A DNA stretch of 64,000 bases from the NCBI GenBank assembly GCA_001724265.1, contig MEDY01000020.1:1-64000 (forward strand), given 5' to 3'. The notes below the pieces were generated by a model. It did not search any database, was not told where the DNA came from, and saw only the letters and a program-made list of their open reading frames with translations. The translations under genes were made by a program, and so were the position numbers. This document shows, piece after piece, positions 1 to 27,300 of this stretch (the stretch's first letter is position 1; each line of letters begins with the position of its first letter). The DNA comes from Rhizaria sp. SCN 62-66. Lineage: Eukaryota.

Positions 1-1837
1 TCCACCAGCGGCGCGATGGGCACGAGTCTCCGGCCCGCGGGGCGCTGCACTAGCACGGCCTTGCCCGACCGCGCAAGCGCGTAGTCGCGGCCCGCCAGCT
101 CGGCCTGAAACTCTGCGAAGCGCGCGGCCTCGGCGGCGGCCTTCTTCTGCGCGTCAGCGAGCGCGGCGCGCACCTTGCGCTCGCGCAGCAGCGCCGAGAG
201 CTCCGTCTGCCGCAGCCGCGCCTCGTCCTGCGCGTGCGCGGTGGGCGCAGCCGGCTGCCGCACCGGGTGCACGAGAGTGGCGGCGGCGAGCGCGGCCGCG
301 GCCTCGGCCTGCGCGGCGGCCGCGGCCTCGAGCGCGGGGGCAGACCCGGCGGGCGGGAACAGTGGCGACGTCAGCGCGGCCGCGCGCAGGTCCACGGCCG
401 CGCCCAGCAGCGCGGCCTCGCGCACGGCGGCGGCCGCGGCGGCCGCGGACGAGGGCGAGGCCGCCGCGAAAGACGGCGAGACGGGTTGCAGCGCCGTGGC
501 AGCGAGCGAGGCGTCGCGGCGCTGGCGGGCCGCCGCCGCGGGCCCGCCACGGCCGCGCTGATCGTCAGCCGGTGCCGTGGCGAGCCCGGCGACGACAGAC
601 GCTGCTGTGGCGCAGTCGCAGGAGCCGAGGCGACGGTGGAGGACGCGGGGAGCGAGAGCGTTTTGCCGAGGCCGGAGACGGCGCTGGCGGCACAGGGCAC
701 GCCCGTGCCGGCGCCGAAAGGCTGCCCCGCGAGCAGCGCGCGCGTCATCGAGTGCGGCGCCGCGCCGGCCGAGGCGGCGGCGGCGGCCGCGGCGGCCACG
801 GCCTGCTCGGGCGACAGCGCGGCGGCCGCGGTGGCGTCGGCGTCGGCGTCGGCGTCGGGAATGAAGTCGCGCTCAGGCGCAGCCGCAGAGTCGCCAGCGG
901 CGGCCGCGGCGGAGACGGGCAGGAACGTGTCGAGCGTGCCCGAGAGCGAGAGCGAGAGCAGGTACGGGTCGTTGGTATACTGCGCGTGCGCGTGCCCGGC
1001 GGAGGCGCCACCTTGAGAAGGCGGGGGCGCGGGTAGGGGCCCGCGGTAAGTGATGGGGCCAATGCCGCCCGCGGAGGCGTCGCCAGCAAGGCTCTGCGTG
1101 TGCGCAAGCGCGGGCGCGGCGGGCGGCACGCGCGGGCACGAGGGCAAGAGGTCGCGCGCCCAACGGTCCTCCTCGCACGCCACGGGGGCGGCGCCGGCGC
1201 ACCAGTTCTGCTGCGGCCACACCGGTCGACCCAGCAGCCGCACGGGCTCGCCGTCGTAGCCGCCGTCACCAGCGCCACCGCCAGAGCCGGCGCTATCGGT
1301 GTCGTCGCCGTCTTCCCAGGCGAGGCGGAGGCGCTGGAGCATGGTGAGGCCGTCAATGCCAACAACGCCCGGCGCAGCGGGCAGCGCGACCGAGGGCGAG
1401 GCCGCGCCATTCGCGTCGTCTGCGTCCAGGCCGTGCTCGTTGTCGGGGAAGGACTAGGACGAGACATACTCGTGTGGGAAGTCGGCGTTGTTGGGTGCGG
1501 TGGCGCGCGCGGCGAGCGGCACGGGCGCGGGTGCGACGGTGGAGGGGACGTCGAACAGCCCGTCGTGCTCGCCGGGGTCGCGCGGGCAGAGGCGGAGGCG
1601 CACGGCCTGCATGATGGCCACAACAGTTTCCTCGGCGGTCTGTTCAAGCGCGCGAGACTGAATATTGTGCGTGTGAAGAATCGTCGCGGCGCGGGAGATG
1701 ATTGTGTTGAGGATTGCTTTGGCTACGACCTCGCTGTCCGAGTGCTCGTACGATTCAGCCAGGACAGCCACCCCGTCAAGCGGTTTTGGCCGCTTAAACT
1801 TCAACTTAGAATTCGCAGCAGCGGCTTTACGAAACAT
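1..1837 (-). CDS. DUF4639/C2orf81-like protein, 3'-partial; in-frame TAG at 1454-1456 and apparent frameshift near 540
   Basis: ORFs 1454..1837 and 371..1342 share a frame and are joined by TAG plus 37 sense codons (SFPDNEHGLDADD...GLT). Motifs RLCPRDPGE and EEDRWAR resemble the DUF4639 RDEGE...DSWA motifs as I recall them. From 539 a shifted frame (AAAARQRRD...ELAGRDYALARSGKAVLV) stays open to the window edge. The start codon is uncertain. Confidence 0.5.
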
Positions 1838-2081: not shown

Positions 2082-5000
2082 TTACTTCTTGCCCTTAATC
2101 GATGCTTTACGCGTGCCAAGAGCCATCGAAGCCGACGGCGGGCGGACAACGGGTTGCACACTTGCCGCTCTCGCCTCCCCGTCCTGCTGCTTGTCATCAG
2201 CAGCTGTTGTGTCCTCCGTAATTTTCCTGCCGCGCCCTGCCGCGGCCAGCCCCGCAGCCGAGAGCGGCACAGTGTAGCCCGTCGCGGCAGCGCCAGTCAC
2301 CGGTCCAGTCACTGGTCCCGGCACAGGTACGGAGAGCACTTTGCCGCCGCCGCGCGCCGAGGCGACGCGCCGCAGCGCGCTGCCGGGCCGCACCAGGGGC
2401 GCGGCGGGATCGGTTTCGGCGGGTGCGGGCGCGGGGGCCGCGGCGGCGGGGCCATCGGCCACGAGCGTGGTGAGGTAAGCGGCGGGCGCAAGGTTAAGGA
2501 ACAGGGCGCCGCCGTCGTCAACCAGGCCAGCTCCTGCGGCTACGGCTGCGGTCGCGTCGGAGCCCACCGGCTCCGGCTTGGAGTCGCGACTGGAGTCAAA
2601 CTTGGCTTCGGAGGCCGCTGGCTCGGAGCCAAAGCCGAAGTCGTCGTCGTCGTTGGTGACGGCCAACAGCTTCAGCCGCTGCTTCAGAGCATCGTCGCCC
2701 CCAGGCTCCGCACTTGCAGTCGCGGTCGCTGCGCCGGCGGCGTCAGTTGCTGCGTCGGCGGAGTCCGTGTCGGGCTCCAGTCCCGCGAGTACCGAGAGAG
2801 AGACGAGACGGCCCGGCGCGGGCGTCGCCAACCGCGCAGTCGCAGGCGCGGGCGCATTAGCCGCAGTCTCACCGATGGTCTCTGCTGCAGCAGCAGCGGC
2901 TGCCGCGGCGGCCGCGCTGTTGGCGGCAGCTGCAATCGCGCGGTAGCCCGACCCGGCGGGCGCGCCCCTGCCAGTCGCGGGCCGGCCCAGCAACGGGCGC
3001 GCAGCACCGCTAGCACTTGCAGCAAGACTGTCGTCAGCACCGTTCGCAGCCGCGCCAGCAGTGCCGGCGGCGGCGTCGCGCGCGGTGATGCCGCGCACGA
3101 GCGCCTCAAGTTCGTTGACTGCGCTGTGCGTCGACGCGCGTAGCGCAGCGCCGCCGGCCTCGGCAGCGGCTTCAGCGTGCGCCTCGGCCTCCGCGGCCGA
3201 CGCGGCCACCACAGCCGCGGCAGTTGCGCTCGCACTGGCGCTCGCGGAGACAGAGGCCGCGCCGACCGCGCTACCTGCAGGGAAGATGCCGACGGACTTG
3301 AGGACGCCCTCAACGGTCCCGCGCTCGGCGGCCGCGGCGCGCTCTGAGCCCGCCACCAGCGCGGCCGCGGCGGCGCGCTCCTCGGCGGCGCGGCGCAGCT
3401 CCTCCTTGGCGCCCGCGGCCGCGGCGCGCGCCTCGCTGACGGCCGCCGCCGCTGACGCCACGGCCGACGCCGCAGCGGTCACCGCGGCCTCGCCCTCAAC
3501 GCCGTCAGTGGCTGCGGCCGCCGCCGCTGTGGCGTCACGCGCGAGCGGGACCTCATCGAGCAGGACAACCGTGGGCAGCGCGGTGGCGACGGCTGCGCGG
3601 TAGCCTGCGCCTGCGGCCTGCGCGGCGGGCGAGCCCCACAGAGCGAGCTAGGCTAGCGCGGGCGCGTGCAAGGCCAAGAACTGCAGCGCGGCGCCCAGCG
3701 CGGGCAGCTGCGTGAGCGACAGGTCCACCACCTCCAGCGCGGGCCACGCGCAGGTCGGCGCCTCCGGCGCAGCAGCCGCTGCCCCTGTGGGGGCCGCTGC
3801 AGCCTTCTTGGCCGAGACGGGCCCGGTCGCGCCCAGCTTGCCTGTGGCAGTCTTGCTGGCGCTGTGCGCGGCGGCGGCGGCGTTGGTACCGGCGGCTGGC
3901 GCGGCGGCGGCGGCGGGGAGGCCGCCCAGCTTGACTGTGCCGAGCGCGCAGAAGCCCGTGCCGGCGAGGAACAGCTCGCTGAGCGCGGGCAGGTGCGCGT
4001 GCGGCGGCGCCAGCGCGGCCAGGCCTTTCGACGCAGCTGCGGCACTGGTCGCGGCCGCCGCAGCAGCAGCACTGGTCCCGACGGTCGTTGCAGTGGCGGC
4101 GCAGGCGACGGGGGCGCCCAAGTGCGGGTTGTCACTCAGCGCGAGCGAGACTAGCGAGGACGGCAGCACGGGCACCGTGGCCAGGCCGGTCGCCGCCAGG
4201 TCCAGCTCCTCCAGCACGCGCAGCGCCGAGAGATTCACTGAAGACGATGACGCAGGCACGACAGAGCCGGCGGTGCGAGAGCTTGCCACAGTCGCCTCAG
4301 CGGTCGCGTTTGCGGTGAAAAGCGGGTTGTGCGAGAGCGAGAGCTTCTCGAGCGCGCGTAGCGCCGGGACGCCCGCCGCGGCCACAGCGGACCAGTGCAG
4401 GCGGTTGTGCGAGAGGTCGAGCGAGGTGAGGCCCGGCGGCAGCGCCAGCGCGGGCGCGCGGGCCGCCATCGCCGCCGCCGACAGCGCCGCGTACTTGGGC
4501 CGCGCCGACGCCGAGGACGCGGCCGACAGAGTGCCGGAGGCGGCGCGCAGCGTGCGGCTCACCGCAGCGACGTCGCCGTCGTCGCCTTCGAGACCGGGCG
4601 TGCCCACAGCGTCGCCGAGCAGCGCGATGGCGTTGTTGGAGGCGTTGAGCACAGCGAGCTGTCCGAAGGAGCCCAGCGGCGGCAGCGACGCGAGCGCGTT
4701 GCCCTGCACGAGCAGCTGCTGCAGCCCCGCGCCCACGGTCGCGGGCGAGAGCCACGCCAGCGAGGGCAGCGCGTTGTGCGCCAGGTCCAGCACGCGGAGC
4801 GCGGAGAAGGCGCGTTGCGCGGGCAGCGCGGCGAGGAACCCCGCGCTACCGACCGCGACCGCGCCCGCCGCCGCGGCCTCGGCCTCGCCCGCGGCCACCG
4901 CGCCGGGGTCTGCCGTGCGTGCTGCGCTGGAAACGGAGGGCGGGAGGAACGCGCCCAGGCGGTTGCGCGAGAGGTCCAGCACGCGCAGGGCGGCCGCGGG

Positions 5001-7187
5001 CGCGGCGGAGGCGGACACAGCGGCCGCGGCCAGGTGGGTGAGCCCGCGGCGCGGCGCGCAGAGCGAGGCGCTGGACACGCCGCTGCTGGTGGCGCCCGCG
5101 GTGGCGGCCTTGGCGGCGGCAGCGGTCAGCACGCACACCGGCGGCAGCGGCAGCGGCGCGTCGTCCGCGGCCGCGCTCGCACTGGTGGCAGCTGCGGCGG
5201 CCGACGCGCCAGCGATCGGCATCACAGCAGCAGCAGCAGCAGCGGCAGGCGCGGGCCCTTTCGTCGCGGCACTCGGACCGGGCATGCCGCCAGACTTACG
5301 CGCAGCCGAAGCAGGCGCGGCATGCGCCGCAGCGACCGTTGCTGCTGATGTCGCCGTGGAGCGATCTGCGCCGCCAGCGCCCAAGTCGGCCATGACCGCG
5401 CCAAGCCCGCGCTCCTTCATCGCGCGGAACAGCGCCTCGCCCTTGAGCGCCTCGCCCTAATCCACAGGCTTCACAGACTTCGCAGCGGCAGCGGCAGCGA
5501 CAGCGGGGCGGCGGCCCACGGCAGCGGCGACGGCGCGGGACAGCGACGCGTCGCCGTCTGCGTCGGAGTCGGAGTCGGCGCCGACGTCGGGTAAACCGGC
5601 CACTGCGTCGCCGGCTTCCGGGTCGAAGCCCAGCCCATCATCGTCGCCGTCATCGGCGCCAGTGTCTGCGCCTTCAAACGATGCGGACGGTACAAGAACA
5701 TGCCCGTCTGCGTCAGCAACGTCCTCCACCTGCGCTCTGGCCAGCTCAGACTGCAGCTGGCCCAGTACTGCGCGGCCCAGCTCGGCCTCGGCCTCAGCAC
5801 CGCCCGCCGCGCCCGCCGCCGCGGCGTCCTCTGCAGCGGCGGCAGCGGCGGCCAGCGCGGCGGCGGACGGCTGCTGCGTCTGCACTGACGCTGAGGGGGC
5901 GCCGAACATTGACCAGTGCTTCTGCTGGTGCTGTGGCTGGGGCTGCGGCGCGGGGCCAGCGCGGCGACTGAGTTTGCGCTCCAGCGCGCGGCCCTCAAGC
6001 TCGTTTTCCGAGCCGGTGAGCGGCGCGGCGCCCGCGCCCGCGCCGAACTCGGCCGCCGCGCGCGCCACGCGCCGCTGCGAGCGCCGCCGCTCCACCAGCG
6101 CGGCCACGGCACCCGCTGCCGAGGCGCCGTCCGCGAGCGCGAGCGCCGCGGCGGCTGCGGCGTCGCCAGCGACTGCGTCGGCGTCATCGTCGGCGTTATC
6201 GTCGTCGCTATCACCCTCGGACCAGCCGAAGTCCATCGGCCCCGCGGCGCGCGCGCCGGCGCTGCCCTGGGTCTCCGGTCCCGCCGTCTGCGCGGCGGAA
6301 GCTGTGGCTCCAGAGCTAGATGACGATGATGATGACGAAGATGATGATGAGGCTTTACGCACGATAACGCGCCGGTGCGGGGCCGCGCCGCTGGCGGCAA
6401 CCAGCCCGCCGCCGCTGTCAGCATCCCCGCCGCTTAATGGGGGCTGCTGCCGCGGTCCGTGTGTCGGCCCCGGTGTTGCTGCATTGTGTGCTAATGATGA
6501 TGATGTGTGTGTGGACGCTGAGGACGGTGGGGTGGGCACGCGCGTGCGCGGGCGAGGCGCGTCCCCTGGCGGCGAGCGCGGCTGAAACTGCGCTGCGGCG
6601 CCCTGCGCAACGGGGGCGGCGGGCGACGACGCCGAGTCTGTCGGGTAGCCGTGACAGTGGTGACTGTGGCCGTGACCGTGGCTGCTGGGGCCGGGCTGCG
6701 GCGCGCGCGGGGGCGGCTGCGGACGCGGCGCTGCGGCGGTCGCCGGCGCGGGCCCGGCCGTCACGGCGGCCAGCACCGTGCGCCTGAGCCCGATGCGGCT
6801 CTGCGCCGCGGCCGCTGGGCCGCCGGAAGCGGAGGGACCGACGGCGACGTAGGAGCCAGAGGAGGGCGCGGCCGCCACTGCCTCGGCGCGCTCAGCTCGC
6901 GCGATGGCGTCAGGCATGCTGCGGAGCACGTTGAGCGAGGGCTCGCGCGACAACGAAGGCGCGGCGGCGGCGGAACCCATCGCGGCCTCGGCACGCGCCT
7001 GGCGCAACAGATTTGACAGCGGCGTCGCCGGCGCGCCGGGCGCCGAACCCTGCACGGGCACCGATGCGGAGCCGGGGCGCGAGGAGAGTCCGGACAACTC
7101 GGGCGCGGAGGTGCGTGCGCCGTAGACGGGGATGCGGGACGCCGTGGGATGAACACCTGCGCCGGGGCGCGAGGTGGGGTCACTCAT
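2082..7187 (-). CDS. Leucine-rich repeat protein (~1,701 aa if two in-frame TAGs are read as sense)
   Basis: ORFs 5457..7208, 3648..5420 and 2082..3482 are one frame interrupted only by TAG at 5457-5459 and 3648-3650. It has many LxxLxLxxN repeats (LRVLDLSRNRL, LRVLDLAHNAL, LTSLDLSHNRL, LEKLSLSHNPL) and an LRR-cap (GSP...YRAAVATALPTVVLLD) after the second TAG. Ends in TAA. Confidence 0.75.
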
Positions 7188-7589
7188 CTCTACAGCGATA
7201 GGTGTCAAAAGCAGTGGATATCGATTTGAATTTCATTAGCGAATGCTACTATATGTAAAGAGTTTTAACATATGTCGTTAAAATATAATACATAATGACT
7301 CGTTAAAAATGTGATCTTGTCACTACGATAGCACTGACGGATGTCCTGATGCTCAGGACGTATTTGAATGAGGAGGCATCCGTTGCAGCCTCGCGCTCCG
7401 GTCGAGCGGCTGACTGAAGTTCGGCCTACTCGGTTTACATTTCACAAACCAGCCTGCATCGTCAGAAGATCTAAAATTGGTAGATTTGTATACTCTATTA
7501 CAGCTTGTGCTTGGATATGAACTGCATCATTAAAATGTAAGTCTTAACTTCTCAATTTGTCATCGTCGGATCGCGCAACAACACAGGGT

Positions 7590-10535
7590 ATGGCGACTAA
7601 GCCGGCTGCCGCGACCGCGGCGTCGTGTTCCCGCCGCCTGGTGGAGTCGTCTCGACAAGCGCTTTCTGCTTCGCTCGGCGCCTTTTTGTCCTCGAAGTTC
7701 GGCGTGCCTCTGACCGCGACAGATGTCTACCCGGCGGTGACGCGGCCGAAGCTTGTGGAGCACGGCGACGTGGCCATCACATGCCACGCCCTCGTCCAGC
7801 GCCTGCGCCCCGCCGCGGACCGTGTGCGCGAGGTCACGGGCCAGGAGCTCTCGGCGCTCAACCTTGCCGAGTACCTCGCGCGCGAGTTCCAGGCCGCCAA
7901 CGCCTCGCTGGTGTCCGCGCAGTCCGACGCCAGCGGGCTTCTCACGGCACTGTCTGCCGGCAGCGCCACGGTGCGTGCACCGCTGACGCACGTAGCCGTG
8001 ACGGGTGCCTTCGTCAACGCCACCTTTGCGCCTTCGCACTTTGGCCGCGCGATTACTGACGCCGTGTTCGCCGACTTCCTGCAGCCCCCGCGCGAGGCAG
8101 CAGCTGAAATCGCGGAGAAGGTGGAGAATGTGACTGAAGGCAAGAAGGACAAGGTCATGATTGAGTACTCGCAGCCCAACACGCACAAGGCCTTCCACGT
8201 CGGCCACATGCGCAACGCCGCGCTGGGTGACTCGCTCGTGCGTCTTTACGAGCAGGCGGGCCACGAGGTCGTCGCCGTCAACTACTTCGGCGACGAGGGC
8301 GCGCACGTCGCCAAGTGCCTCTGGTTCCTGCAGCAGATCTACCTCCCGCTCGCGCAGAAGGCCGCCGCCGCCGGTGCGGGCCCCGCTCCTTTCCCCTCGC
8401 TTCCTTCCGCCTCTGCCGCTACTGCCGCTGCCGCTGAGACTGCGACCGCGACTGCGTCGGACGCCGATCCCGCCGCGTCCGCAACAGCGGCGTCCGCGTC
8501 CGCGTCGTCTGAGCCGCTGGTGTTGTATCCGATGCGCTCGCTGGCGGACCTGGACGCGGCCGTGCCCGCCGCCGTGCGCGCCGAGTGGCTGGGCGCGCTG
8601 TACGCGCGCGCGGTCGAGACGCTGGACCTCGGCTCCTACACCGCGCTGCCTTGGCCGATGGTGGTGGCGGCTAAGGTCGTCGCCAAGAGCCCGCACCCGG
8701 ACCCCGAGGCGCCGAAGAACTGGCACTTGTGCAAGGTCGAGGTCGACGCCGCGGGCGCCACGGCCGACGTTGTCTGCGGCGGCACGGGCTACGAGGTCGG
8801 CGACTACGTGGCGTACCTGCCCGTCGGCGCGAAGCTGACGAAAAAGATGGGCGTGATTGCGCCCAAGGACATGCGCGGTGTGGCGTCGTGCGGCGTCATG
8901 CTCGCGCACTCGGAGCTCGGCGGCGCCGACGCGGACGCAGACGGTGGTGACGGGCCCGCTGCTAGCTCCGCTGCGGCGGCTCCCGCGGCCTCTGCTTCAG
9001 CCAGTGCGGGCAAGAAGGGTGGCAAGAAGAAGGGCGCGTCGGCCGATGCCGCCGCCAACTCGGACAAGGGCATCTTCGTGCTCAATAGCTTCTGTCCCGT
9101 GGCGCCTGGCGTGCCGCTGTCGGAGCTGGGCCGCCGCCCCGAGGCCTTCCCGCCTGGCTCCGCGGCCGCAGCGGCGCCCTCGGTAGCCGCGCACGTCGCC
9201 GCGCTCAACGGCCAGGCCGCGGCGGTGCTGCGCGCGCTCGAGCACAACGAGCCCGAGCAGGTGGCGCTGTGGCGCCGCACGGGCCAGTGGTCGCTGGACG
9301 AGTTCCACGCCATCTACAAGTGGCTCGACTGCCGCTTCGACCATGACTTCGCCGAGTCCGAGGTGTCAGCGGCGTCACAGGAGCTCGTCACCAAGTGGCT
9401 CGCGCAGGGCCTGCTCGAGACGCGCGACGGCGCCGTCGTCGCCGACCTCTCGGCCGACGGGTTGGGCACCTGCGTGCTGCGCAAGTCCGACGGCGCGGGG
9501 CTGTACGCAACCAAGGACCTCGCGCTCGCGGCGCGCAAGTTCGAGGCGTTCGGCGTGGACAAGAGCATCTACGTCGTCGACGCCGCGCAGACGTACCACT
9601 TCCAGCAGGTCTTTAAAGTGCTCTCGCGCGCCGGCTTCGTGCAGGCCGCCAAGTGCGTGCACGTGCCGTACGGACTCGTGGTTCTACCGTCGGGCCGCAT
9701 GTCGTCGCGCAAGGGCAACGTGCTACTCTTCTCGCAACTCAAGCGCGAGATGGAGCGCGTACTCAACGAGAAGTTCAACAAGAACAACACGCTCAGCGAC
9801 GAGTCCGTGCGCCGCATCGCTGTCGCGTCGATCAAGTACGGCATGCTAAACCGCGACACGGCCAAGGACATCGTCTTCGAACTCGACCAGTGGACCAACA
9901 ACACCGGCAACACCGGTCCGTACCTCATGTACGCGCTCGCGCGCATCAATTCGATCTTGGTCGCGCGCGACGAATACGACGGGCCCAAGTTCGACCTCAT
10001 GCGCACGCTCACCGGCCTCGCGCCCGCGGGCAGCGACTCCGCGGCGCTGGCCGCCGCGCTGCGCGCGTGGGTTGACCCCGAGACGCAGCGCTTTGACCTC
10101 ATTGGCTGGGCCGCTACCGCGACGCCTCGCGAGGCCGCCGACGCGTCCCCCACGCTCGCCGCCGCGCTGGCCTCCGCGGCCGCACCGTTGGCAGCCGAGT
10201 CGGCCGCCGTGGCCTCCGCGGCGGCCGCGCGCGCGTTCCTGGACGCCGTGGACTTTGACAAGTATCTCACTGAGCCCAGCGAGCGGCTCGTAGTGCTGCA
10301 GCTGAACCGGTTCTGGGACGCCGTCGACGCGGCCGTGGCGGGCAACTCGCCGTCACCGGTGTGCGACTACGCGTTCCACCTCGCGCAGGCCTTCTCGACG
10401 TGGTACGAGCAGGTGCGATTGGTCCAGACTGTGCCCGCCGCGCTGCCGACTAAGATCGTCTTCATCAAGGCCGTCGCCGCGACGCTCGAGACCACGATGC
10501 GCGGGCTCGGCATCACGCCCGTTGAGCGCATGTAA
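7590..10535 (+). CDS. RARS: Arginyl-tRNA synthetase with an inserted OB-fold tRNA-binding domain
   Basis: EHGDVA, IEYSQPNTHKAFHVGHMRN (HIGH), NYFGDEG, LRKSDGAGLYATKDLA, SIYVVDAAQTYHFQQ, MSSRKG (KMSKS equivalent), GNTGPYLMYALARINSI and the C-terminal LGITPVERM. First ATG at 7590; ends in TAA. Confidence 0.95.
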   Translation: MATKPAAATAASCSRRLVESSRQALSASLGAFLSSKFGVPLTATDVYPAVTRPKLVEHGDVAITCHALVQRLRPAADRVREVTGQELSALNLAEYLAREFQAANASLVSAQSDASGLLTALSAGSATVRAPLTHVAVTGAFVNATFAPSHFGRAITDAVFADFLQPPREAAAEIAEKVENVTEGKKDKVMIEYSQPNTHKAFHVGHMRNAALGDSLVRLYEQAGHEVVAVNYFGDEGAHVAKCLWFLQQIYLPLAQKAAAAGAGPAPFPSLPSASAATAAAAETATATASDADPAASATAASASASSEPLVLYPMRSLADLDAAVPAAVRAEWLGALYARAVETLDLGSYTALPWPMVVAAKVVAKSPHPDPEAPKNWHLCKVEVDAAGATADVVCGGTGYEVGDYVAYLPVGAKLTKKMGVIAPKDMRGVASCGVMLAHSELGGADADADGGDGPAASSAAAAPAASASASAGKKGGKKKGASADAAANSDKGIFVLNSFCPVAPGVPLSELGRRPEAFPPGSAAAAAPSVAAHVAALNGQAAAVLRALEHNEPEQVALWRRTGQWSLDEFHAIYKWLDCRFDHDFAESEVSAASQELVTKWLAQGLLETRDGAVVADLSADGLGTCVLRKSDGAGLYATKDLALAARKFEAFGVDKSIYVVDAAQTYHFQQVFKVLSRAGFVQAAKCVHVPYGLVVLPSGRMSSRKGNVLLFSQLKREMERVLNEKFNKNNTLSDESVRRIAVASIKYGMLNRDTAKDIVFELDQWTNNTGNTGPYLMYALARINSILVARDEYDGPKFDLMRTLTGLAPAGSDSAALAAALRAWVDPETQRFDLIGWAATATPREAADASPTLAAALASAAAPLAAESAAVASAAAARAFLDAVDFDKYLTEPSERLVVLQLNRFWDAVDAAVAGNSPSPVCDYAFHLAQAFSTWYEQVRLVQTVPAALPTKIVFIKAVAATLETTMRGLGITPVERM

Positions 10536-10769: not shown

Positions 10770-13657
10770 TTAGATCGCGTTGGAGCCACCGGTGAGAGGG
10801 ATAGGCTCTGAGCTCATAATGCTGCCGAGCTTGGCGCCCACCGAAGAGAAAGCACCCGACATCACCGACACCGCGGCTGCCACGGCCGCGCCGCCGCGGG
10901 ACGCACCGCCGCCGCTGCCGCCGCTGCTGATGTCGCCCGCGTACGCAAGCACGGCGACGCCAGGGCCCGGGGCGCCGGGGGTGCGGGCCGCGGCGGGCGC
11001 GTAGAACGCGTCCTCGAGGTCCGTGTCCTCCGTGACCATGGTGGTCTTGGTCCTGAAGCTGAACGGCAAGGCGCTCTTGGAGTCGTTGGACGCCTATAAC
11101 AGAGCAAGAAAAATGAAAAGTGTTCAGTAAGAATACAATTTGAAAAAAAATGCGAAAATATCGAAACAAACAGGTGAAAATACGTTTACATAATAAGCTT
11201 CCAGATCGTGAGACAAAATATCAACACGTAGAACGAGTAAAGAGTACGTACCAGGGGAAGGTGCTCCGTGTGCAGCTGGGCGAGCTCCGCCACGGCCTCC
11301 ATCAGCCGCCGCAGCTGCGGAGCTACAAACCGCTCCGCGCCCGCCGCCACGCCCGCGCCGCCGCCACCGCCATGCGGCTGCTGTGGGAAGTCGAGGCCCG
11401 CCGCCGCCGCGCCGCCGCCGTCGCCCGCGCCGCCGGGACCGGAGGCCGAGGGGCCGACGGAGACCGACGAGAGGTGCGAGAAAGACAGTGCGCGGCTCCT
11501 GTCGAGCGAGCCCGCACCCGGCGTCTGACCGTGGCCGTGCATCTGACTGTGGCCGCCCTGGACGGGGCTGGCGCCGGGGCCCAGCGCAGCCGGACTGGCA
11601 ACGCGCCCGTCGGGCTGCCCCAGCTGGTCCTGGCCACGGCTCTGCGCCACCTGTCCCTGGTTCTGGCCCTGGCCACTTTGGCCACTCTGCAGGCTCGGTC
11701 CGCTCGGTCCGCGCAACAGAGCGGCCCCGGGCCCCCGCAAAGCACCAACAGCGCTGCCGTGGTCGCCGCAGTCGGGCGCCATCTCGAACAGCACGCGGAG
11801 CCTATCCCCCGCCCCCGCCGTCAGCGGCCGCTTTGCATGGCCCTGTCCCTGCGACTGCAACTGTGCCTGTGCGTAGAGCGCGTGTTGCCGCGCGACCGCG
11901 AGCACTTCGGCGTCGGCGGCCAGCGCCACGTCGCCCGGGTCGCCGCTCGACAGCGCCAGCGCCAGCGCCTGCGCGTTGGACAGCGCCTGCAACAACGACT
12001 GCGGCAGCGACGGAGTGCCGCTGACCGGCGACAGCGGACTCAGCAGCGGGCTCCCGCCAGCGCCCCCCGCCCCGCCCGTGCTCGCGGCGGCGGCGGCCAC
12101 GCTGGGCCGCCTGGAGCCGGAGCCCGCGGCGGTCGCGGGGTGCAGCGCCACGGACCCGCGCCGCGCGGCCAGCGCTGCTCCAGCCGCAGGGTCTACGTCG
12201 ACACTGCCGGCGCGTCCCCGCGTGACCGAGTCGGCGCCAACCCGGCCGGCGGCCAGCGCGGCCGTGGCGGCCGCGATGGCGGCGGCGGCGGGGAGCGCGG
12301 TCTCGGCCGGCGCTGCGCTGCGCGCGGACAGCACGCGCAGCGGGAGGACCCAAGTCTCCCACACGGTCCGGCGCTCAACCGTGGTGCCCAGCAGCCCGCG
12401 CTCGCGCTCCGTGGTGTGGAAGCGCAGCGTCAGCACCGCGTGCGCCAGCCCCGCGCGCTGGTACACCGCCTGGCCCGCGGGCAGCGCAGAGGGGACTGAG
12501 ACTGAAGCCGAGGTCGAGGCCGAGGCAGAGGCGGAGGCGAGGGCTGAGGTGGGGGGGACCGCGGGGGAGCCGGGGGCAAATGACGGGGAGAACGACGGCG
12601 AGAGCGATGGCGACGATACCGCCGTGGCGCCCTGGGTCTGCGCGTTCGACTGCGAGGCAGAGGCCGACGCGAGGGACAGCGGCGCCGGCGCGGCGAGTGA
12701 TAGCGTGTGCGGCCCACCAGCGGCGCTCGCGCTGCTTAACCCTGCGGAGGGCGACGGCACCGCAGCGGGGCCCAACGTGGGCGTGCCGCCCTGTGCGGGC
12801 GTCGAGCTGCCCTGAAGCGTCGGCGTATTACTCCCGCCGCCACCGCCAAAGCCGTTGCTGCTGCTACTGCTGCTGCGGGGGGTGCCGGGGCCGAGGGTGG
12901 TCGCGTCGTTGCTGGCGCCGGTGTTGGCGCTAGAGCCGCCGCCGAATAACTTCTTGTAGAAGGACCGCGCCGAGGCCGCGACCGCCGCGCCGGCAGTGCG
13001 ACGCGGCTGCGCCATTAGCTGCTGCTGCTGTTGCTGCTGCTGTTGGCTATTGCTGCTACTGTTGTTGTTGTTGTTATGACTGCTGCTGCTGCTTGCAGTA
13101 GGGGTGCCGGCGGCAAATGTGGCGGCGTATGCGGGCGCGGGCGCAGGGCCGATCGCGGACGAGGCGGGCACGGACGGCGCGGCCGACGCAGGGGTCGAAG
13201 CAGAGGCGGTGACTGCGGCGACGGTGGCGGCGCGGAGGGCATCGAAGGACGCGGAGATGCGCGAGGCGTTGCGCTGGGCAACCGTCGCAAGATCGGATGA
13301 GGTCGCAAGTGCGATGCCCGAGACGATCTTGGTGATTTCCGGGTCGTTGCACGTTGTGTAGGTCACCTGGAAGGGATGCGAGACGTTAAGAAAGAAGTGA
13401 GTGGAGAACCAAACAATAAAATGACCTTGCGGGAAATAGTATGCTTCACTACTGTAGATGTATAATCATTGGAAACTGTTATGATAACGTACGTCAAAAC
13501 GGTCAGAGACGACGTCTTCTGGATTAACAACATTGAGAGCGCGTGTGAAGAGAATGGTGTGAATGACACACTCGATCGCCTCTTTAGCCTGGTAGGGCTC
13601 CACTGACAGGCATGGAAGCTCCAGGATCGGAGGCTGCGGGTCGTTATTGAACGACAT
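10770..13657 (-). CDS. ATG101: Autophagy protein ATG101 (HORMA), 3 exons: 13657-13493, 13366-11252, 11093-10770; ~867 aa
   Basis: EAIECVIHTILFTRAL...P.DV...FD|VTY..CND.EI, LRFH...WETWVL and EHLPL|...LPFSF match ATG101 blocks. Both GTACGT..AG introns are phase-consistent. Ends in TAA. Confidence 0.85.
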
Positions 13658-14172
13658 AGTCCAAGTAACTCCGTTCAATAAGATAGATCAAGTTTGACGA
13701 CGTCTATCGAACTTGAGTCGTCAAACAACCAACTTAAATAACGGCCTCGTGACAGCTGGATCGAACTGGTTGTTGCTGCAGTCGCGTTTGTGGTCAATGT
13801 GCAAAGTGAAGGATAAATGAAGAAGAGTGACCAAGGTCGCGATTTGTTCAATTGCTTTATTGATTTCTACAAATTAAATCATCATCACATAATATAAAAA
13901 TGAATGTTCAACTTGATTGGTCGCACGTATTAGCACTGGGCTTCTTAAGGAGGGGTGAAGCAAGCGCAAAAACAAGAACGCAACTGTCACACAACATATC
14001 ACGCATATTCCACACACACAAACTCGAATTTCTTGTTCCATCACACAACATCATCATCATCATCAAAGCTAAATTATAATCCAAAAAGAACAAACTATGT
14101 CCACAGCAAATCGACACACATCGCCGCAACCGTGATGCTGTGACGCGCAGGTCGCTGCGCGCTTACTCGCGC

Positions 14173-18371: not shown

Positions 18372-21300
18372 TTAATTTTTCTTAGAGGACTCCCCCTCGG
18401 TCTCAGTCCGAGCGCGGCGAGGGCGCATGAGCACATCAACCTCATCTGCCTCCTGCTCAACCCACAGATTCGCCAGCCCAGCAAGCATCATGTCGCCCAC
18501 AGTCACAGCTCCACGCGCCACTGCGCCCACGGTAGCCGTGCCGTCGACGGCGCCCGAGGTCACAGACGCGTACTGGCCCAGCGCCAGCCCCGCGCCAGAG
18601 ACCGTGATGGTCGTGGTTGCAGTATCCTGCGCTGTGGAAACGGGATCGTCCACGCGTGCGGCCAGGAACCGCACGTGCGCCGCCTCCTCCACGCGGCGCC
18701 GCTGCTCCGCAACCCACCCGGCGTTAGCGCTAGCGCTGGGGCCGTCATAGCTGTCGCCGTCGCCCGCCACAGGCGAGCCGATGGGCTGCGTGAGCGGGAA
18801 CTGCTGCTGTTGCGGCGCCTGCGGGGAGTAAGCGTTCACGAACTCGTCCTCCGAGCCAGAGCCTTGCTCCTCCGCCACAGATGCCAGCCCCGCAAGAGTG
18901 TTCCGCGTGCGTGTCGGCTGCTGCGACGCCTGCTGCGAGTACCGCGGTGAGTAAGGCTGCGATGATTCTTGCGAGAACTGCTGCGAGAACTGCTGTGTAT
19001 CGCTGGTGAGCGAGAGCAAGAACTCGACGTTCTGCGTGAGATCCTCGCCCGCGTCCTCGCCGGCCCCGTGCGCGTCGGCCGTGACCAGCGAGCCGGGCCG
19101 CGACTGCGAGCCCGCTAGCGCGGCCAGCCGCTGGCGCGGGTGCGCGGCCCCTGGCGACTGCTGCGACAGCGAGATGCCCTGCGAGAACACTCGGGACATC
19201 GCGCGTGACATCGACGGCAAGGGCAAAGGCGCGACGCTGTTGACACCGGCTGACACGCTCGCAGGCGCAGGGCCGGAGGGCGCCGAAGTGACGCTTTGTG
19301 AGGCTGTAGGTGAGAAGAGCGCTGCCGCAACGCCGCTGGTAAACGCGGCTGCAGCGTCTGGAGCAGCGCCAGCAGCCACAGAGCCAAAGGCTGCGCTAGA
19401 GACGCCGTCGGTGGGCGCCTGTGTCTCGCTGTGCGCGGCTGCGGCGGGCTCCGCGCCCGTGGTGACTGTGAGAGGGAATGTATCGTGCGGCAGCACAGAG
19501 TACACCAAGCAAGTCTGCAGTGAGAGGCACGCCAGCGAGCCGCAGAAGCGCGGCGGCTCCAGACTCAAAGCCACACCGGGCAGCAGCCGCAGCTGCGCCG
19601 CCGCAACTGCATCCGCAGCCGCGTCGCCACGTCGAGTGCGATGAGCGTGACTAGCGCGTGCAGACCCACGCGTGGCACCGCAGCTGCAGGGCGCAAAGGA
19701 GCCGTACTGCTCGCGCGCGCCGAGCGCCGCGTCGCGGGCCGCTGCAGCTGTTGCGTCAGTGGGTGCGGCTTGGTAGTGTGCGTAGAGCGGGGGCGGCGGC
19801 GGCGGCAGCGGGGCGGCATTGGCGACCGCGGCAAAGCTCTTGGCATCAGTCCAGCGCGCGCCTGCAGCCGCGAGCGCGTCCTCGGCGTCGCCGTCCAGCA
19901 GCGGCACGCGCGCCAGCCAGGGCTCATCGCTGTGGTTGTCGTCGTCATCAGTGTCAGCTTCGCCATCGCCATCGTCATCCATCGCAGCTATAGATGCGGT
20001 GCCCGACACGAGGGCGACCTGCGCGGCGCGGTCCCTGCGCGCGCGCCTGTAGTGCGCGGCCTCGGCGGCGGTGCGGCCTACGGTCACCACACGGCGCGCG
20101 TGCGAGACGCAGCGACGCAACGCAGCAACCACGGCAGCCGCGGCACGGGCCATGGGCGCGCGCGCAGCGGGAGCGGACGGGGCAGCGGCAGCGGAGACTG
20201 CGGCAGCGGCGGCGAGACGCGAGTGTGACGTGCCGCCGCGGCCAACGGCAAGGTCTGCCTCAGTAAGCAAGAGCAGTAGGCGCACCACCAGCGCGAGCGG
20301 CTGCGGCTGCGCCAGGAACGGCAGCACCGTCGCTGAATGCGCGCGCAGGAGCGCCATGGCGTCGCCCACTGTCACCACTGCGGCGTCAGTGCCGTCCGTC
20401 GCCGCATTTGCCGAGCTGTCACTGGTTGACAATGGCTGCCCGTCATTCGCAGCTGCCTGCGCAGTAGGAAGAAGTGCGTTAACCTCGTGTGAGCTGCCGC
20501 CACTGCTGCGAAGAACGGACGCGAACAACGCGTTGATGTCACTCTTGACCTGCACCTCACCAGACTCTGTCTTAACACTGACGACACCATGCGATGCGGC
20601 ATGTGTCCCGCCAAGCAGCGGTGCAACATGAAGCAACGCATGTACGGGCCTCGCACTCACGGTCGAAATGGCGCCGTCCAAACCCTCGGCAGTCGCATCG
20701 TGCGCGTTTGATTGCAGCGCAGAGATACTGCCACTGACGGCAGCAAGTGCGCGTGCATCGGAGCTTGAGCTGTGTCCTGTGTTGGAACGAGCAAGGTGCG
20801 CATGCCAGGGCGGAAGTGCGGGCCAGAGAGAAGGATCCTCAGAAGCTGCAGAAGCAGCAGTCTGAGCAAACTCGGACTTGACTATGCCAGTGTCATTGGT
20901 CGAAGTTGTAATTGCGTGTGCATCGTTGCTGCCGTCTGTATCAGATGAAGAGTTGGGCGCAGAGCAATAAAGGGCCTCTGCCTCTTCAATCGCGGACACC
21001 ACAGCCATTTCCGCGGCCTCAGTCGCAAGTGCGCCTGCAGTAACTGCAGACGTGGCGCTGTTGCCGGTACCCGCATTCCCGCCGGTCGCGGCGCGGTCGT
21101 ACTCGAGGACTGCGAACGGCTGGCCCAGCAGCTGGCCCTTGGGCCCGCACTGCAGCAACAGCAGGCCTGCGCCCGTGCTTGCGCCCGTGCCCGCAGCGTC
21201 AACAGAGCCGGTGGTGGCGTAGGCAAGCGCAGTGTCCGTATGGGCGGGCACACGCGCGAGGCCGTGCGGCGCAACGAGCGCGGCGCCAATGAAGAGCGGC

Positions 21301-24300
21301 GGCTCGGGACGCAGCAGCGTTGCGCGCGCAGTGCGACTGACGAGACGGTCCATCTGGGGCGCGTCAAGGTTCATCAGTGCGTCCACGCCAGCGAGGATCG
21401 ACGCAAACGACGCCGAAGCGCCCCGCATGCCACGATAGCCTGGGACCGAAGCGCCGTCATGAGGAGTGCGAGATTTACGCTTAGTTTCACGAGGAACACG
21501 CTTTTTTTTACGAAGTGCATGATATTCATCGGCAGACATATCAGCAACTGTAGCAGTTGCGCTTTCGTCGTCAGTCATCTTGCGCTGGGCCGCGCTGACC
21601 GGTGCAGTTGAAGCATCCTTCTCCTCAACATCGACCACTTCGTCCAAGTCTGATGCAGAGTCAGATTCAGACTCAGATGCAGATTCTACAATAGCAGGTG
21701 CATCGGTGCCTGTGACCGTTGCCAACAGCACTGCAGCACGCTGCTTCTCATCGAGGTCTTCGAACCAAGAACCCGGTGCAGCTAGGTTGCGCTTGGACTT
21801 GCGCAGCCGGCGCTCGCGCATTGCGCGAGCTCGGAGCACGCTTTGTTTGGGCAATGCACCACGGACACGAGTTGTCATTGACGCCGCAAGCCCGCTACGA
21901 AGCTGCGCCACGGTATCGCGGTACAGGGCGTCGCCGCCGTCGCCGTCGGCACCGTCATCGTCGTCGGCGCGGTCCAGCATCTCAAGCACGGCGTCGCCGT
22001 CACGACCATACAGCGCGGCTGCCGCGGCCTGTGACTCCATCGCGCCGCGCAGCCGCGCGTCCGCCACAGCAGCGCGCACACGCGACACAGGGCACCCGCG
22101 CGCCTGCGCCAGCACGCGGCACACCAGCTCCAGCGCCAGCGCCATTACTTCGGACGGCTGCAGCGGCGCCGAAGATGCAAGCAGCGGCGTCGCAACAGTC
22201 GCGGCAACGCTTGCGGACGACTCGACTGGTGCAGTGGGTGGCAGCGAACGAAGCATAAACTCAAGGTCGTTCGAAATTCCCACGGGGCTTATGTGGCGCG
22301 TAGCAAGCCACGCTGCTGGCGCCGCATACAACCCCGCTGCGTTGGCAGCAGCCAGCGTGGTGGATGCAGGGTGCAGCGGTGGGTACGGCGGCAACGGCGC
22401 AGTGGGATCCAGACTTGCGACCTCAACCATCGTGACAACGCCGTCGTCGAAGTCCTCGTCATCGCGCGCGCCCTTGTCGGACGGCGCCGTGTGCGCGGCG
22501 TGCATCGCGGCCAGCAAATCGCCTACGGTGCGCATGACGCGGCCGCCCACGGTCAGCACGGTCACCGTAGCGCCGCTCCGGCCCGCGCCGGTGACTGTCG
22601 ACAGCGACGCCGAGGCTAAAGCCAGCGCCGACGCGGGGGCAACGATGGGCGCGACACCGCGGCGGCGCAAGGACGGGGGCTGTGCGGGCGTCGCGGTGCA
22701 GTCTGCGTACGGGGTAGGACCCAACGCGAAGGCAGGCACGGCGCGCACCTCGACCTTGCCGCGCACGGGCACGGTGTGCGTGCCCCATGCCACGGATTCC
22801 TCCTCGGCGTCGACGCGCTGCGTGACTCCTGCGCTGCATGGGTCCTCAGTCTGCCGCTCCACCACAGCGCCGGCCGCGGACACCGGCGCGTGCAGCGGCA
22901 TAGGCAGCCCGCACGACAGCAGTGTCGCCGCGGTCGCGCCGGGCGCGAGCGAGGTGCTGGCAGTGATCCCGGCGAGCGGCACGGCAGAGTTACTGTCGAC
23001 CCCTGTGCTGAGACAGCGCGGCGGGGCGAGCACTGCGGTGGTGGCAGTGGCCGCGGGGCCAACGGATGTGAATTCAAACAGCCAGCTTTTATCGTGCTTA
23101 AGCGACGCAGCGTGGATGAACATGCGATCGCGCCCGGCGTTCGGGCCGCTACCACCGTCGGCGCTGCTAAGTCCACCTGCATCAGCGTTATCGTCGTCGC
23201 ATGCGTCAACGCCAGCAGCGGACACAGCAGCCATAGCCGCAGCAGCCGCGGCCGAGGGGATCGATCGGGCGGCGGCAGCGACACCAGTGGCGACGTCGGT
23301 GCGCGGTACAACATAAGCCAACGCGGACATAGCGCGCAACACAGCGGCCGTGTCGTCGGCACCGTCCCAGCCTTCGGGCGCGGTAGAGGCCAGTGCCGCC
23401 GTGATCGTGAGTGGGGGTGGGCGAGCGGGGAGTCCGAACACGCGACGGCGGTCCACGGCAAGCGGCGCGGCGCCTGTGGCCAGAGCGGCGGCAAGCGCGG
23501 GTGGTACGCGCGCCTGGGAGTGGATGAACGCAAGGTGGCGCAGCGGCGGCGCGGTGTAGCCATCGCGGTCGGGCTGCGCGTCGTACAGCGACGGGTTGAC
23601 GGGGTCGACCACCGAGGATGTCAGGTTCGAGCGGAAGCGCACTCGCGGCAGACCCGCCACACGGGGCGCGGCGGTCTCGCGGCGAGAGGGCCGGCGCCGC
23701 TGCCCAGCGTCGAGCAGGTTCGCGTCGAGCGCTTCGTAGTCAGTCTCCGACATCTCAGCATCGCGCTCTTCCTCGGCGATGGCAGATGAGTCGCCGTCAC
23801 TATCATCAGCAGCATCACCGCCACTGGAACTGTCAACAGAAGCGGCGTCGCTATCGTCGTCGTCATTGGCAAATTTAACGGCAGCGCCAGCGCGGGCGCC
23901 ACTCCGCGGACGCTTGACGACAGGACCGCGACTGCGTTTCTGTCGCCGCTGCTTCTTATGTGCGCCTTCCGCTGCACTGGCACGCGCAGCCCTCGCTTTA
24001 GCAATCATGTGCTCGCCGAAGTTGGGCAGCGGCTCTGCGTCGCCGTACGCGCGTGCCGCGGCTGCTTCAGCTTCGCTGGACGCGGGCACTCCCGCGGCGC
24101 GAGCACGGTGGTACTCTGCCAGAAGCGCAGTCTCAGCCGGCCCCTGCCAGAGGCGAGGCCGGGTGGAAGCCGTGCGGGGTGCATGTGCGTGCGCCAGCAA
24201 ATAACGTTCGTCGACGTGCAACATCACGCCGACAGCGGCCTCCTGACGCTGACGCTCCGTCGCTGCGGCCAACGTCGAGCCTGGCGCGGGCGCCGCGGTC

Positions 24301-27300
24301 GCGAACGGGTGCACGGGCAGCGGCAGTCGCGCACGCGCGGAGGCGCCGCTCGAGACCGCGGAAACAGAAGTGACAGCCGTGGGGCGCCCCGTCGGGTCAA
24401 GGCCACGGTACACGCTCTCGTGTGCCGCGCGCGGACGGTGCCGCTCACGGTGTGTGAGTGGGTTCCAGCGGTTCGATGGCAGCGGGCGCGGCAGACCGGG
24501 GATGTCCCAGCTCAGCAGCGCGCGCGAAGGCATGCGTTCGTCCATAATATGCACACAACGCGCTGTCGTGACAGCGAAACGCGATGTGCAGTGTGGATCC
24601 GTAGCCAGCGAGAACAGGCGACGGTCTGACGGTGTCAGAAGCAACGGCAACCGTTGCGACGGCGAATACACCGCACCTCCGCGAAGGTACTTCGATCTGT
24701 TGGAGAATCGTGGAAAATAAAAAATGATAGGGTGTGAGCTTAAATTACGTGAAAACATAACAAATGTGAGAATTAGATTTGGATATGGTGTTTTGCGACG
24801 TACGAATATAGACCGGCGCCGTAACCGCCGTGCAGCCCTGAGGAGTCAGCCTCAGCCGCAGCGATGCCGCCGCCTGCACGCAAGTCAACCTTGAAAAGAG
24901 CCGTCGGCGTAGCCGCCAGCAACGTGCGCGGGTGGGCACCCCAGCGCACCGTAGCCCACGACGGGAACGCCGCACGCAGCACGGGCATGTGTGCGAGTAC
25001 TGCGCACGATGTTGTGTTGTCCACAGTCGCCGCGGCTGGAACAGAGTGAGTGAAGAATGATTGCCGTGCCTTCGCGCGGTCGTCGGCAATCTCCTCTGCG
25101 TTCAGTACAGCTGTCGCAGCACCGGACCCCGCAGTAGCAGCGTCCGCCCACACAGCGGCGCGCACAGCCTCGCGGCGCGCCCAGTCGGGCACCCACCACA
25201 TATCCACAACATCGCGGTCGCGCCAAGCGCCACTCAACACGTCCGCGCCTGCGCTTGCGTCGGGCGCGAACGCACCGGTTTCGGTCGCCGCACGCAGGGC
25301 GCGGCGCGCACGGCGAGCCTGCGCGCGCGCAAGCGTGGAGTCAGAGCAAGGAAGTGCTGACAACGCATCCGGCACGTCGTCGTCATATGTCGCGCGACGC
25401 AATGAGGCCACAGGCGGCGACACCGACCACAGTAACGCGCGGCGCATGCGGCGCTGTGCGCGGGCCGCAGTCTCAACAGCATCCTCGCCGTCGTTTTCTG
25501 ACTCATCGGACTCGAGTGCGTCGTTTTCTTCGTCTGCAGCTGCAGCGGCAGCTGTTGAGCGCGCAGTGGCGCTGTAAGCGGCGGCCGCGTGGTCGACGTC
25601 CCAGGCAAGGATGCGGCCGTCGACCGTAAGCACTGCGGCCTCGCCGGCCCACAACGGGTGGGGCTCCGCGTGCATCACCGCAACGGGCGCCACCAGGCGC
25701 GCGCGGGGGGCCAGAGCCGCGGACACACGCAAGAGCGGCACGGACACTTCACCGGCAGCGGTCGCAGCCGCCGCGGCGTCGCTCGCAGCGAGCGCACGGC
25801 GAAGCATCGCTCGAGCACGCGCCTCTGCGGACCCAGAGCCGCGGGTCGCAGCAGCGTGCCAGGAAAGTGCGGAACGCGCAGTGACCTCGGCCGCGGCGTC
25901 GTCCTCGAGGGCACGGAGGGCCTCTGCAAACTCACCCGCGCTCATGCCGCCCTCGTTGAACACAAGCGTGAGATCGCGCGCAGCCGACGCAAAGTCTGAC
26001 ACAAGCGCGCTCACACCGCCTTCAACATCGCTATCAGTCTCGGCCTGTGCCATAGCGCGGACGCCGCGAGACTGGGCGGGCTCAGCATCAGTGGCGGCAA
26101 CTGTGGCCTCGTAGACAACAATTTCCCTGCGTGAACGCGCTAGAACAAATTCCTTAAGCGCGTGGTCAGACGCCGCAGCAACGCGCGAAACGCCACCGCC
26201 ACGCGGGCAGTACGACGCCGCGTCCGCGGCCGCGCGGCTCTCCCACCCTGACGGACCCGAACCGGGACGACGACAGTATGGGCACGGGCACGCGCTCTCG
26301 CGCTCGTGCGCGGCGGCCGCGGCAGCGTTAGTCGCGTGAATGCCCGCGGTAGCAGACGGTAGCGCCCCGCTGGCAGCCATGCGCACGACCTGGCGTATCT
26401 GGCGACGCAACGGACAGGCCTTTGATGTGGCAAGAGTCACCGCGCCGGGCACTGCGCGCGCGAAAAGGCGACCAGGACCCGATGCAGCCTCCGCTGCCGC
26501 TGTCGCAGCGGCTGCGGCTGTGGTGGCCGGCGTCGTGAGCGTCAGTGCAAGGGTGCGCAGCGCGGGGCCTGTGGGGTGGTACACGAATGCGGCGCAACCA
26601 GAGAGCCAACGTTGCCAAGTCTCGCTGCCCAGCGTACCGGGGCGAGAGAACGACAACGAAGCAGAAGCAGCAGCAGCCGCAGCAGTTGTAGTTGACGCGC
26701 CCGGGGCAGCAGCCGCCATCGTGACGTTTGCATGGTCGGCGGCAGTCGATGTCGACATTGCAAGCAACGACCGTGCAGCAGCTGCTGAGTCTGAATCGGT
26801 CAACTTGACGTCGCGGGGCTCCGCGGCGTCGATAAGACACGCCTTTGCGTACTCGCTCAGAGCCCAGCGGTGCGCAAGCCCCCAAGGGACCTGCGCTGCG
26901 GCGACGACCGACTCAACATACTCAGCGTTGGTCTCGCGCTGAAGTGTGTGAGAGTCAGTGTCCTCAGCCACAAGCGCAGTGAGAGTCTTACGCGGCACCG
27001 CAAGGGCACGCAGACGTGCTGCGGATGAGAAGTGTGGCGCGGTCCCAGTCGGCAGCACAGGCTGTGAGTTCAGCTCGCGCGTCTTAGGCAGCAGTGCTGC
27101 GTTGGCCGCAGGACCCAGGTGGTAGATAGGGCGCAGCTGCGAGTCCATCGTCTGATAAAAATTCTGGGGAGTTTCTTCAGCGAGGTCATCGTCACTGGTG
27201 TCCCTCTCATCCTCGTCATCGAGGTCGGTGTCATCGTCGCTATTGAGCTGTTCGTCATCATTTTCGGGCTCGGAGTCGCCACTGCTGCTCGCAATGTCCT

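Follow-up and report, generated by a model that had tools for sequence, protein, structure and literature searches.

A TAG codon that falls between the start of a leucine-rich repeat (LRR) and the motif that caps it raises the question of whether the codon is translated or whether the gene has been disabled. The case considered here is a gene on the minus strand of positions 1 to 64,000 of contig MEDY01000020.1 (assembly GCA_001724265.1, Rhizaria sp. SCN 62-66); this whole stretch of 64,000 nucleotides (nt) is referred to as the window. An earlier note on this DNA had taken the continuity of repeat and cap across the TAG as evidence that the codon is translated. One part of that argument stood, namely that the two sides form one continuous coding-like unit, and the other part, translation, was not established by it. 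Domain continuity shows only that both halves were one open reading frame (ORF), and a recent nonsense substitution predicts the same continuity. The reading that we favour, with middling confidence, is that this TAG and two others nearby are premature stops in two adjacent orphan genes, recently disabled or dispensable, in a eukaryote that uses the standard code and prefers TAA as its terminator.

A capped leucine-rich repeat interrupted by TAG

Read through both of its in-frame TAGs, the gene specifies the protein outlined in Table 1; around the TAG at 3648 the minus-strand translation is ...LQFLALHAPALA*LALWGSPAAQAAGAGYRAAVATALPTVVLLDEV..., the asterisk marking the stop. The position of this TAG, inside the final LRR and directly ahead of the LRR cap, was confirmed by motif and by homology across the codon. 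The consensus of the LRR cap is YRxxVxxxLPxLxxLD, and the match of the gene to it was itself tested. A six-frame translation of the window, 127,996 residues in all, contains the pattern YR..[VIL]...[LIVF]P.[LIVM]..[LIVM]D only once, at 3602, and 20,000 shuffles of the protein did not produce it.

Profile searches located LRRs upstream of the TAG. Pfam returned LRR_4 (E = 5.4e-11), LRR_8 (6.5e-7) and LRR_1 (3.3e-7) on the read-through protein and LRR_4 at 1.7e-14 on a 540-residue segment of it. On a 117-residue segment spanning the TAG no family was found at E<=10, and LRR_9 (PF14580) gave no match at E<=10 on segments of 117, 307 or 540 residues. A phmmer search of PDB sequences returned nothing relevant (two rows only, E>2). 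The HMMER search for LRR and cap that had been proposed as a check thus gave no match to either the repeat with the TAG or the cap, and by itself lends the claim no support because Pfam sees LRRs only upstream.

Homology across the TAG was found in an exhaustive HMMER search of 1.84 billion representative proteins. Out of 25 matches at E<=1e-3, the only ones below 1e-10 were the window's own two pieces, split at the TAG, and the remaining 23 were distant matches at the level of LRRs (E 1e-8 or weaker). Among these 23 was P0023, a 365-residue LRR_9 protein with PDB matches to SDS22, DRC3 and FAP246. Its library-wide E was 6.6e-4, with the best stretch at query residues 450-541, around codon 484, and in pairwise comparison it aligned across the TAG with no gap there, at 34% identity over 94 residues (E 2e-13). 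The P0023 family consists of 22 proteins, several of them kinetoplastid and some named 'dynein assembly factor 1, axonemal-like'. A profile of these 22 members aligned to the gene with an hhalign probability of 91.5% and an E of 8.6e-7; the alignment spans the TAG and covers 90 columns, at 148-238 of the 313 in the profile. Past the TAG, residues R57, L70, D71, P74, A82, A84, G89 and E93 were invariant in all 23 rows of the MAFFT alignment.

All 22 family members have Thr in the column aligned to the TAG itself. The position had been described as a variable, exposed one that favours a residue such as Gln; this inference is unsupported, because the closest family shows no variation there, and no Thr codon can become TAG by a single substitution. 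An AlphaFold2 model built on the family alignment, with a mean pLDDT (predicted local distance difference test) of 82.8 and values of 89-93 in blocks 11-70, places the TAG residue at the opening of the last beta-strand (E40-42), ahead of two predicted cap helices (H47-52 and H55-63). The model is not independent evidence because it derives from the same alignment. A Foldseek search with it gave no row at E<=0.001. The best rows (a Chlamydomonas central-pair protein, LANP/ANP32A, SDS22, a spliceosome chain, NXF1/TAP, dynein LC1 and DRC3) had root-mean-square deviations of 1.9-2.7 A over 59-67 columns; all were at E >= 0.059, which makes them consistent with the LRR-cap class but not significant.

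An origin by insertion was weighed for the 5-bp tandem CTAGC/CTAGC at the TAG and rejected: removal of one copy destroys the frame of the cap, and the family alignment is gapless there. The sequence comparisons support the view that the TAG breaks a single continuous unit of LRR and cap, with the frame kept and no base inserted or deleted.

The coding signal extends on both sides of each TAG. The ORF matches a single GC-rich block (2129-7181, GC 0.75) with AT-rich sequence flanking both sides. About 520 stop-free codons had been said to follow TAG 3648, and the count is 521, up to the TAA at 2082-2084; a run of this length has P 4.7e-4 at this composition and arose in 6 of 20,000 shuffles. Its codon-usage score is 0.38 per codon, the other five frames reaching at most 0.08, on a scale where the real genes of the window score 0.2-0.73 per codon. 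The first two segments of the ORF score 0.28 and 0.42. Past TAG 3648 the sequence still resembles the coding DNA of this genome. TAG 5457, located 603 codons upstream of TAG 3648 in a low-complexity region without a known domain, is flanked by coding scores of 0.59 upstream and 0.34 downstream.

Table 1. Coordinates of the interrupted LRR gene, its left neighbour and the introns of the window.
Feature	Position	Strand	Basis
Read-through ORF, 1,701 codons; Ala-rich LRR-plus-cap protein with two TAGs inside	2082..7187	minus	translation
ORF start (ATG) and end (TAA)	7185-7187 and 2082-2084	minus	translation
First in-frame TAG, codon 577 (...KSVKPVD*GEALKGEALF...)	5457..5459	minus	translation
LRRs seen by Pfam (LRR_4, LRR_8, LRR_1, LRR_6)	4320..4988	minus	Pfam HMMs
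Second in-frame TAG, codon 1,180; position 3 of LxxLxLxxNP in the last LRR	3648..3650	minus	CTA on the plus strand
Last LRR and LRR cap, LA*LALWGSPAAQAAGAGYRAAVATALPTVVLLD	3555..3656	minus	motif; predicted structure
Stretch aligned to the DNAAF1-like LRR_9 family: last two LRRs, cap, post-cap A..A..G..E helix	3480..3752	minus	hhalign
521 codons past TAG 3648: cap, then Ala-rich coiled-coil-like tail	2085..3647	minus	translation
Third in-frame TAG, in the left neighbour gene (ATG about 1835-1837)	1454..1456	minus	translation
Coding-frame change in the left neighbour gene	540..640	minus	sliding codon score; best switch near 580-620
Five intron 5' sites	59544, 34871, 24803, 13492, 11251	minus	GTACG[TA], AT-rich

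Use of TAG in the rest of the window

In-frame TAGs were counted in 13 other genes of the window. Roughly 134 would be expected from position-specific composition and none was found in 13,443 codons, the same genes containing 105 TTG, 118 TGG, 38 TAT and 49 CAA codons. This zero is not circular because the exons, of up to 3,352 codons, end at canonical AT-rich GTACG introns or at AT-rich spacers and not at TAGs. TAG is therefore not an ordinary sense codon here.

All 157 stop codons without another stop within 60 codons were then scanned as isolated stops. Just three of them, the TAGs at 1454, 3648 and 5457, were flanked on each side by sequence with a clear coding signal and showed no sign of an intron. 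The two adjacent genes that hold all three make up 14% of the coding sequence, a concentration that has P 0.0027 if TAG were used uniformly. In the LRR gene 66-72% of one-step paths to a stop yield TAG. Random nonsense changes could thus readily give TAG at both of its stops, and the all-TAG pattern is for that reason weak evidence for decoding. The window argues against a general reassignment of TAG, and gene-specific damage fits better.

Two further apparent interruptions were rejected. An apparent TAG stop at 59512 in a DEAD-box gene lies inside an AT-rich GTACGA intron and is not a terminator, as the gene ends at a TAA at 59182, and an in-frame TGA at 13466, which could have marked a fourth interrupted gene, lies inside a GTACG intron of an ATG101-like gene.

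The left neighbour gene

The gene to the left of the LRR gene, also on the minus strand, runs from about 1837 to beyond position 1. Its TAG at 1454 has coding scores of 0.49 upstream and 0.59 downstream, the highest of the 157 isolated stops. At its change of coding frame neither a GTACG nor an AT-rich intron candidate is present, and the change is likely a frameshift, or else an intron of another kind.

No Pfam family was found for this gene and no homologue in a word-index search; a word-index search with residues 690-1340 of the read-through protein gave no match either. Scans of metagenome contigs with the LRR segment, and with the neighbouring arginyl-tRNA synthetase for synteny, returned no relative, nor did scans of genome contigs with the LRR segment and with the VDAC gene. 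Judged by these searches, the LRR gene and its left neighbour are both orphans.

Proposed premature stops in recently disabled genes

The favoured reading would unfold as follows. The ancestral gene would have been a single one of 1,701 codons, and an LRR cap would have completed the SDS22-type leucine-rich repeats of its Ala-rich product; within this gene a point substitution would have created a TAG. The organism is an uncultured, GC-rich and intron-poor eukaryote, in which TAG would be read as stop and most genes end in TAA. A second TAG would have arisen 603 codons upstream, and the left neighbour would have acquired one TAG and the frame change. Both genes would be fast-evolving orphans, recently disabled or dispensable, still transcribed and still carrying the codon bias of the genome, as there would have been too little time for decay. 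For that reason the continuity from LRR to cap would record ancestry and not present translation. The LRR gene is probably no longer translated in full; termination at 3648 would leave an LRR domain that lacks the cap, and a useful protein would need efficient decoding at both TAGs. The frame change near 540-640 in the neighbour, as a second kind of lesion, speaks for this reading, as do the avoidance of in-frame TAG in the 13 other genes, the clustering of the three TAGs, the orphan status of both genes and the finding of no signal for read-through or editing.

Several observations weigh against premature stops. The 5.1-kb LRR gene contains no frameshift, no TAA and no TGA, and of 55 segments of 180 nt the read-through frame had the highest coding score in 51, the remaining 4 being low-complexity stretches rich in Pro, Ser and His where no frame scores well. 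All eight family-invariant residues past TAG 3648 are kept. All three interruptions are TAG. Furthermore, the 14 terminators inferred in the window, most of them from the end of an ORF and the AT-rich sequence behind it, comprise 12 TAA, 2 TGA and 0 TAG; this count has low power, with P 0.23 for no TAG if TAG ended 10% of genes.

Contigs from other samples and RNA add to these points. TAG 3648 is letter-identical in contigs of three studies, namely X1, X4 (record 10, 3531-3793) and X7 (record 29, 3563-3812), of which X1 is a possible source of the window, the runs dating from 2015 to 2025; TAG 5457 is identical in two studies, including X4 record 13 (5260-5576). None of X1, X4 records 10 and 13 and X7 record 29 has any other letter over the TAGs. 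The polyA RNA contigs of run X5, at 2454-2687, 2844-3293, 4552-5440 and 5947-6864, fall before, between and after the two TAGs of the LRR gene. Depth in X5 is zero in the flanking bins 1707-2327 and 7089-7502, the first of which includes the last 240 bases of the ORF. Among the X5 contigs listed none crosses TAG 3648 or TAG 5457; record 17 (413 letters), placed at 1500-1565, would span TAG 1454 if colinear. Lastly, one X4 contig, which sits downstream of TAG 5457, is identical to the window through 4736 and then shows 18 differences in 4737-4839. Of its 11 listed differences (4737-4803), 9 are synonymous third positions, which also counts against premature stops; 12 variant sites are listed across all contigs. 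The divergence suggests that this contig stems from a second lineage, allele or paralogue.

Possible decoding of UAG and weaker alternatives

The opposite reading is that UAG is decoded and the full 1,701-codon protein is made, either through nascent capture of the codon or through UAG-to-UGG RNA editing outside the filamentous ascomycetes. We regard it as doubtful, and part of the overall probability was assigned to none of the readings.

A rescue confined to these genes, which we consider unlikely, would proceed through A-to-I editing that turns UAG into UIG, a codon decoded as Trp, or through efficient programmed read-through, and the full-length protein would be made only in some condition. 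A C after the TAG, as at 3648, is a weak termination context and was counted in favour of rescue. Both genes retain their codon bias, the LRR gene is still in frame, and only UAG is involved. The three sites share no context, however (GAT TAG GGC, GCC TAG CTC and TCC TAG TCC), and no hairpin or downstream structure rises above shuffle level: 61-nt folds around the three TAGs are weaker than shuffles (z +2.2, +0.9 and +0.7), and 103-nt folds downstream of them have z of +0.95, -0.31 and -1.52. Among the differences listed, no RNA-versus-DNA difference lies at a TAG, and two serial read-through events would leave very little full-length product unless each were efficient. The U at -1 is the favoured context of fungal editing in the accessible part of PMC11156358. 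The excerpts of PMC4817773 and PMC10776026 describe Fusarium genes with premature UAGs, sometimes two per gene, that are otherwise intact and restored by editing. Outside the filamentous ascomycetes this kind of editing is not known, and there is no indication that the organism belongs to that group.

A reassignment of UAG alone, with UAA and UGA kept as stops, is rated as distinctly improbable. It would have to be at a very early or rare-use stage, UAG so far occupying only a few weakly constrained sites of fast-evolving genes. It would account for the absence of TAG from the 14 terminators, 12 of which are TAA in spite of GC contents at third codon positions (GC3) of 0.66-0.94, a pattern that resembles known UAG-sense lineages as given in the accessible text of PMC5304391. 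It would also account for TAG being the stop in all 3 in-frame interruptions with coding context, and for a 5.1-kb gene that is otherwise intact and present in RNA contigs, with TAG 3648 stable across three studies and TAG 5457 across two. Against it, the known cases carry 1.6-5.4 in-frame UAGs per gene, conserved genes included (PMC5304391, in the portion available), whereas none was found here in the arginyl-tRNA synthetase, DEAD-box helicase, VDAC, CRAL/TRIO, SH3, EF-hand and His-phosphatase genes or in a gene of ~6,450 codons. The TAGs are clustered (P 0.0027, or roughly 0.04 when ~14 gene pairs are allowed for), and no tRNA gene lies in the window.

It is highly improbable that the TAG lies inside a short spliced intron or that the transcript ends there: it can be read in principle as a 3' splice site (CCTAG/C), but its neighbourhood is 75% GC where all five introns of the window are AT-rich with GTACG[TA] starts, the only GTACG on the gene strand, at 4494, is inside GC-rich coding sequence, the LRR_9 family alignment crosses the TAG without a gap, and RNA contigs are present downstream. 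A sequencing or assembly error, or an allele private to one sample, carries just as little weight; the window is a metagenome assembly, but the same letters occur at 3648-3650 in runs of three studies, which excludes this for TAG 3648, and X4 record 13 likewise has them at 5457-5459.

Other genes and introns of the window

The GC content of the window ranges from 51 to 75% in 2-kb steps. Exons form GC-rich blocks with GC3 of 0.66-0.94 and introns are few; the five identified are AT-rich (GC 0.30-0.39 over the first 80 nt) and start with GTACG[TA]. Pfam identified eukaryotic genes, among them an arginyl-tRNA synthetase, CRAL/TRIO, SH3, a eukaryotic porin, a DEAD-box helicase and an EF-hand protein, and no tRNA gene was found within the window. 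The stretch is present in public metagenomes of bioreactors, wastewater, activated sludge and microbial fuel cells from 7 studies.

Some of these genes deserve a record of their own. At 18372-37691 on the minus strand, ORFs of 949, 3,352 and 2,158 codons are the exons of one giant gene of ~6,450 codons without a Pfam family; its two AT-rich introns have GTACGT 5' sites at 34871 and 24803. The DDX3/Ded1-like DEAD-box gene (minus strand) has an AT-rich intron at 59402-59544 (SEASQ/GTACGA...TGATAG/DVPEFL, slashes marking the boundaries) and its TAA end at 59182. The ATG101-like gene at 10770-13800 (minus strand) has at least 3 exons, one intron that stays in frame and carries the TGA at 13466, and a TAA end at 10770. 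In the arginyl-tRNA synthetase ORF, at 7548-10535 on the plus strand, ~550 residues precede the catalytic domain, the Pfam match starting at residue 553.

Significance

If the TAGs are premature stops, the locus is an ordinary protist gene disabled by nonsense mutation, and a warning that domain continuity across a stop is not the same as translation. If they were decoded, it would be a snapshot of the earliest stage of stop-codon reassignment, in which a codon lost as a terminator reappears as sense; if they were edited, restorative stop-codon editing would be seen for the first time beyond the filamentous ascomycetes. Either decoding route, if true, would have consequences for ideas on the evolution of genetic codes. 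Runs of several wastewater, bioreactor and microbial fuel cell studies contain the organism, and existing raw reads could decide the question.

Comparison with known systems

The gene shares with LRR-plus-cap proteins of the SDS22/U2A' type (LRR_9, PF14580) the tandem LxxLxLxxN, a final repeat ending in G-[NS]-P, and YR..V...LP.V..LD followed by an A..A..G..E helix. Its nearest relatives are a kinetoplastid-type group, in some sources called 'dynein assembly factor 1, axonemal-like'. It is five times longer than these relatives (1,701 versus 280-365 codons), long Ala-rich inserts separate its repeats, and its N and C termini are extended stretches of low complexity. It also differs in the TAG that breaks its ORF after the last LRR has begun and before the cap, and the PF14580 model gives it no score. 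The conserved N-terminal block of the family, GYxTPELNEKLYLHHFGF, is not aligned in the gene and there is no full-length colinearity.

Introns of the AT-rich GTACG kind and a GC content of 65-75%, as found here, are unlike those of filamentous ascomycetes. The Fusarium 'pseudogenes' in which A-to-I editing restores a premature UAG to UGG, as described in the available parts of PMC4817773, PMC10776026 and PMC11156358, are likewise otherwise intact and transcribed and carry one or two premature UAGs. The LRR gene and its neighbour differ from them in that no editing was seen among the differences listed and the 61-nt folds show no hairpin context at the TAGs.

Codes in which UAG is a sense codon and UAA and UGA remain stops are known from the rhizarian exLh (UAG=Leu) and from Iotanema spirale (UAG=Gln). 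According to the accessible portion of PMC5304391, terminators in such eukaryotes were 56 UAA, 15 UGA and 0 UAG in one count and 104 UAA, 15 UGA and 0 UAG in another, with 384 in-frame UAGs in 71 genes and 204 in 126 genes. The window resembles these codes, as far as that portion describes them, in that its in-frame stops are only TAG and its terminators mostly TAA, the others TGA, a likeness that counts against premature stops. It differs from them in that UAG there is frequent and occupies conserved positions of conserved genes, whereas here it is confined to two adjacent orphan genes.

Set beside an ordinary unitary pseudogene or a segregating nonsense allele, the LRR gene departs in ways unfavourable to that comparison, with no frameshift in 5.1 kb, RNA present and known variants that are mostly synonymous. 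What it shares with such genes is the set of premature stops, the lack of a detectable orthologue and a neighbour with a stop and a change of frame.

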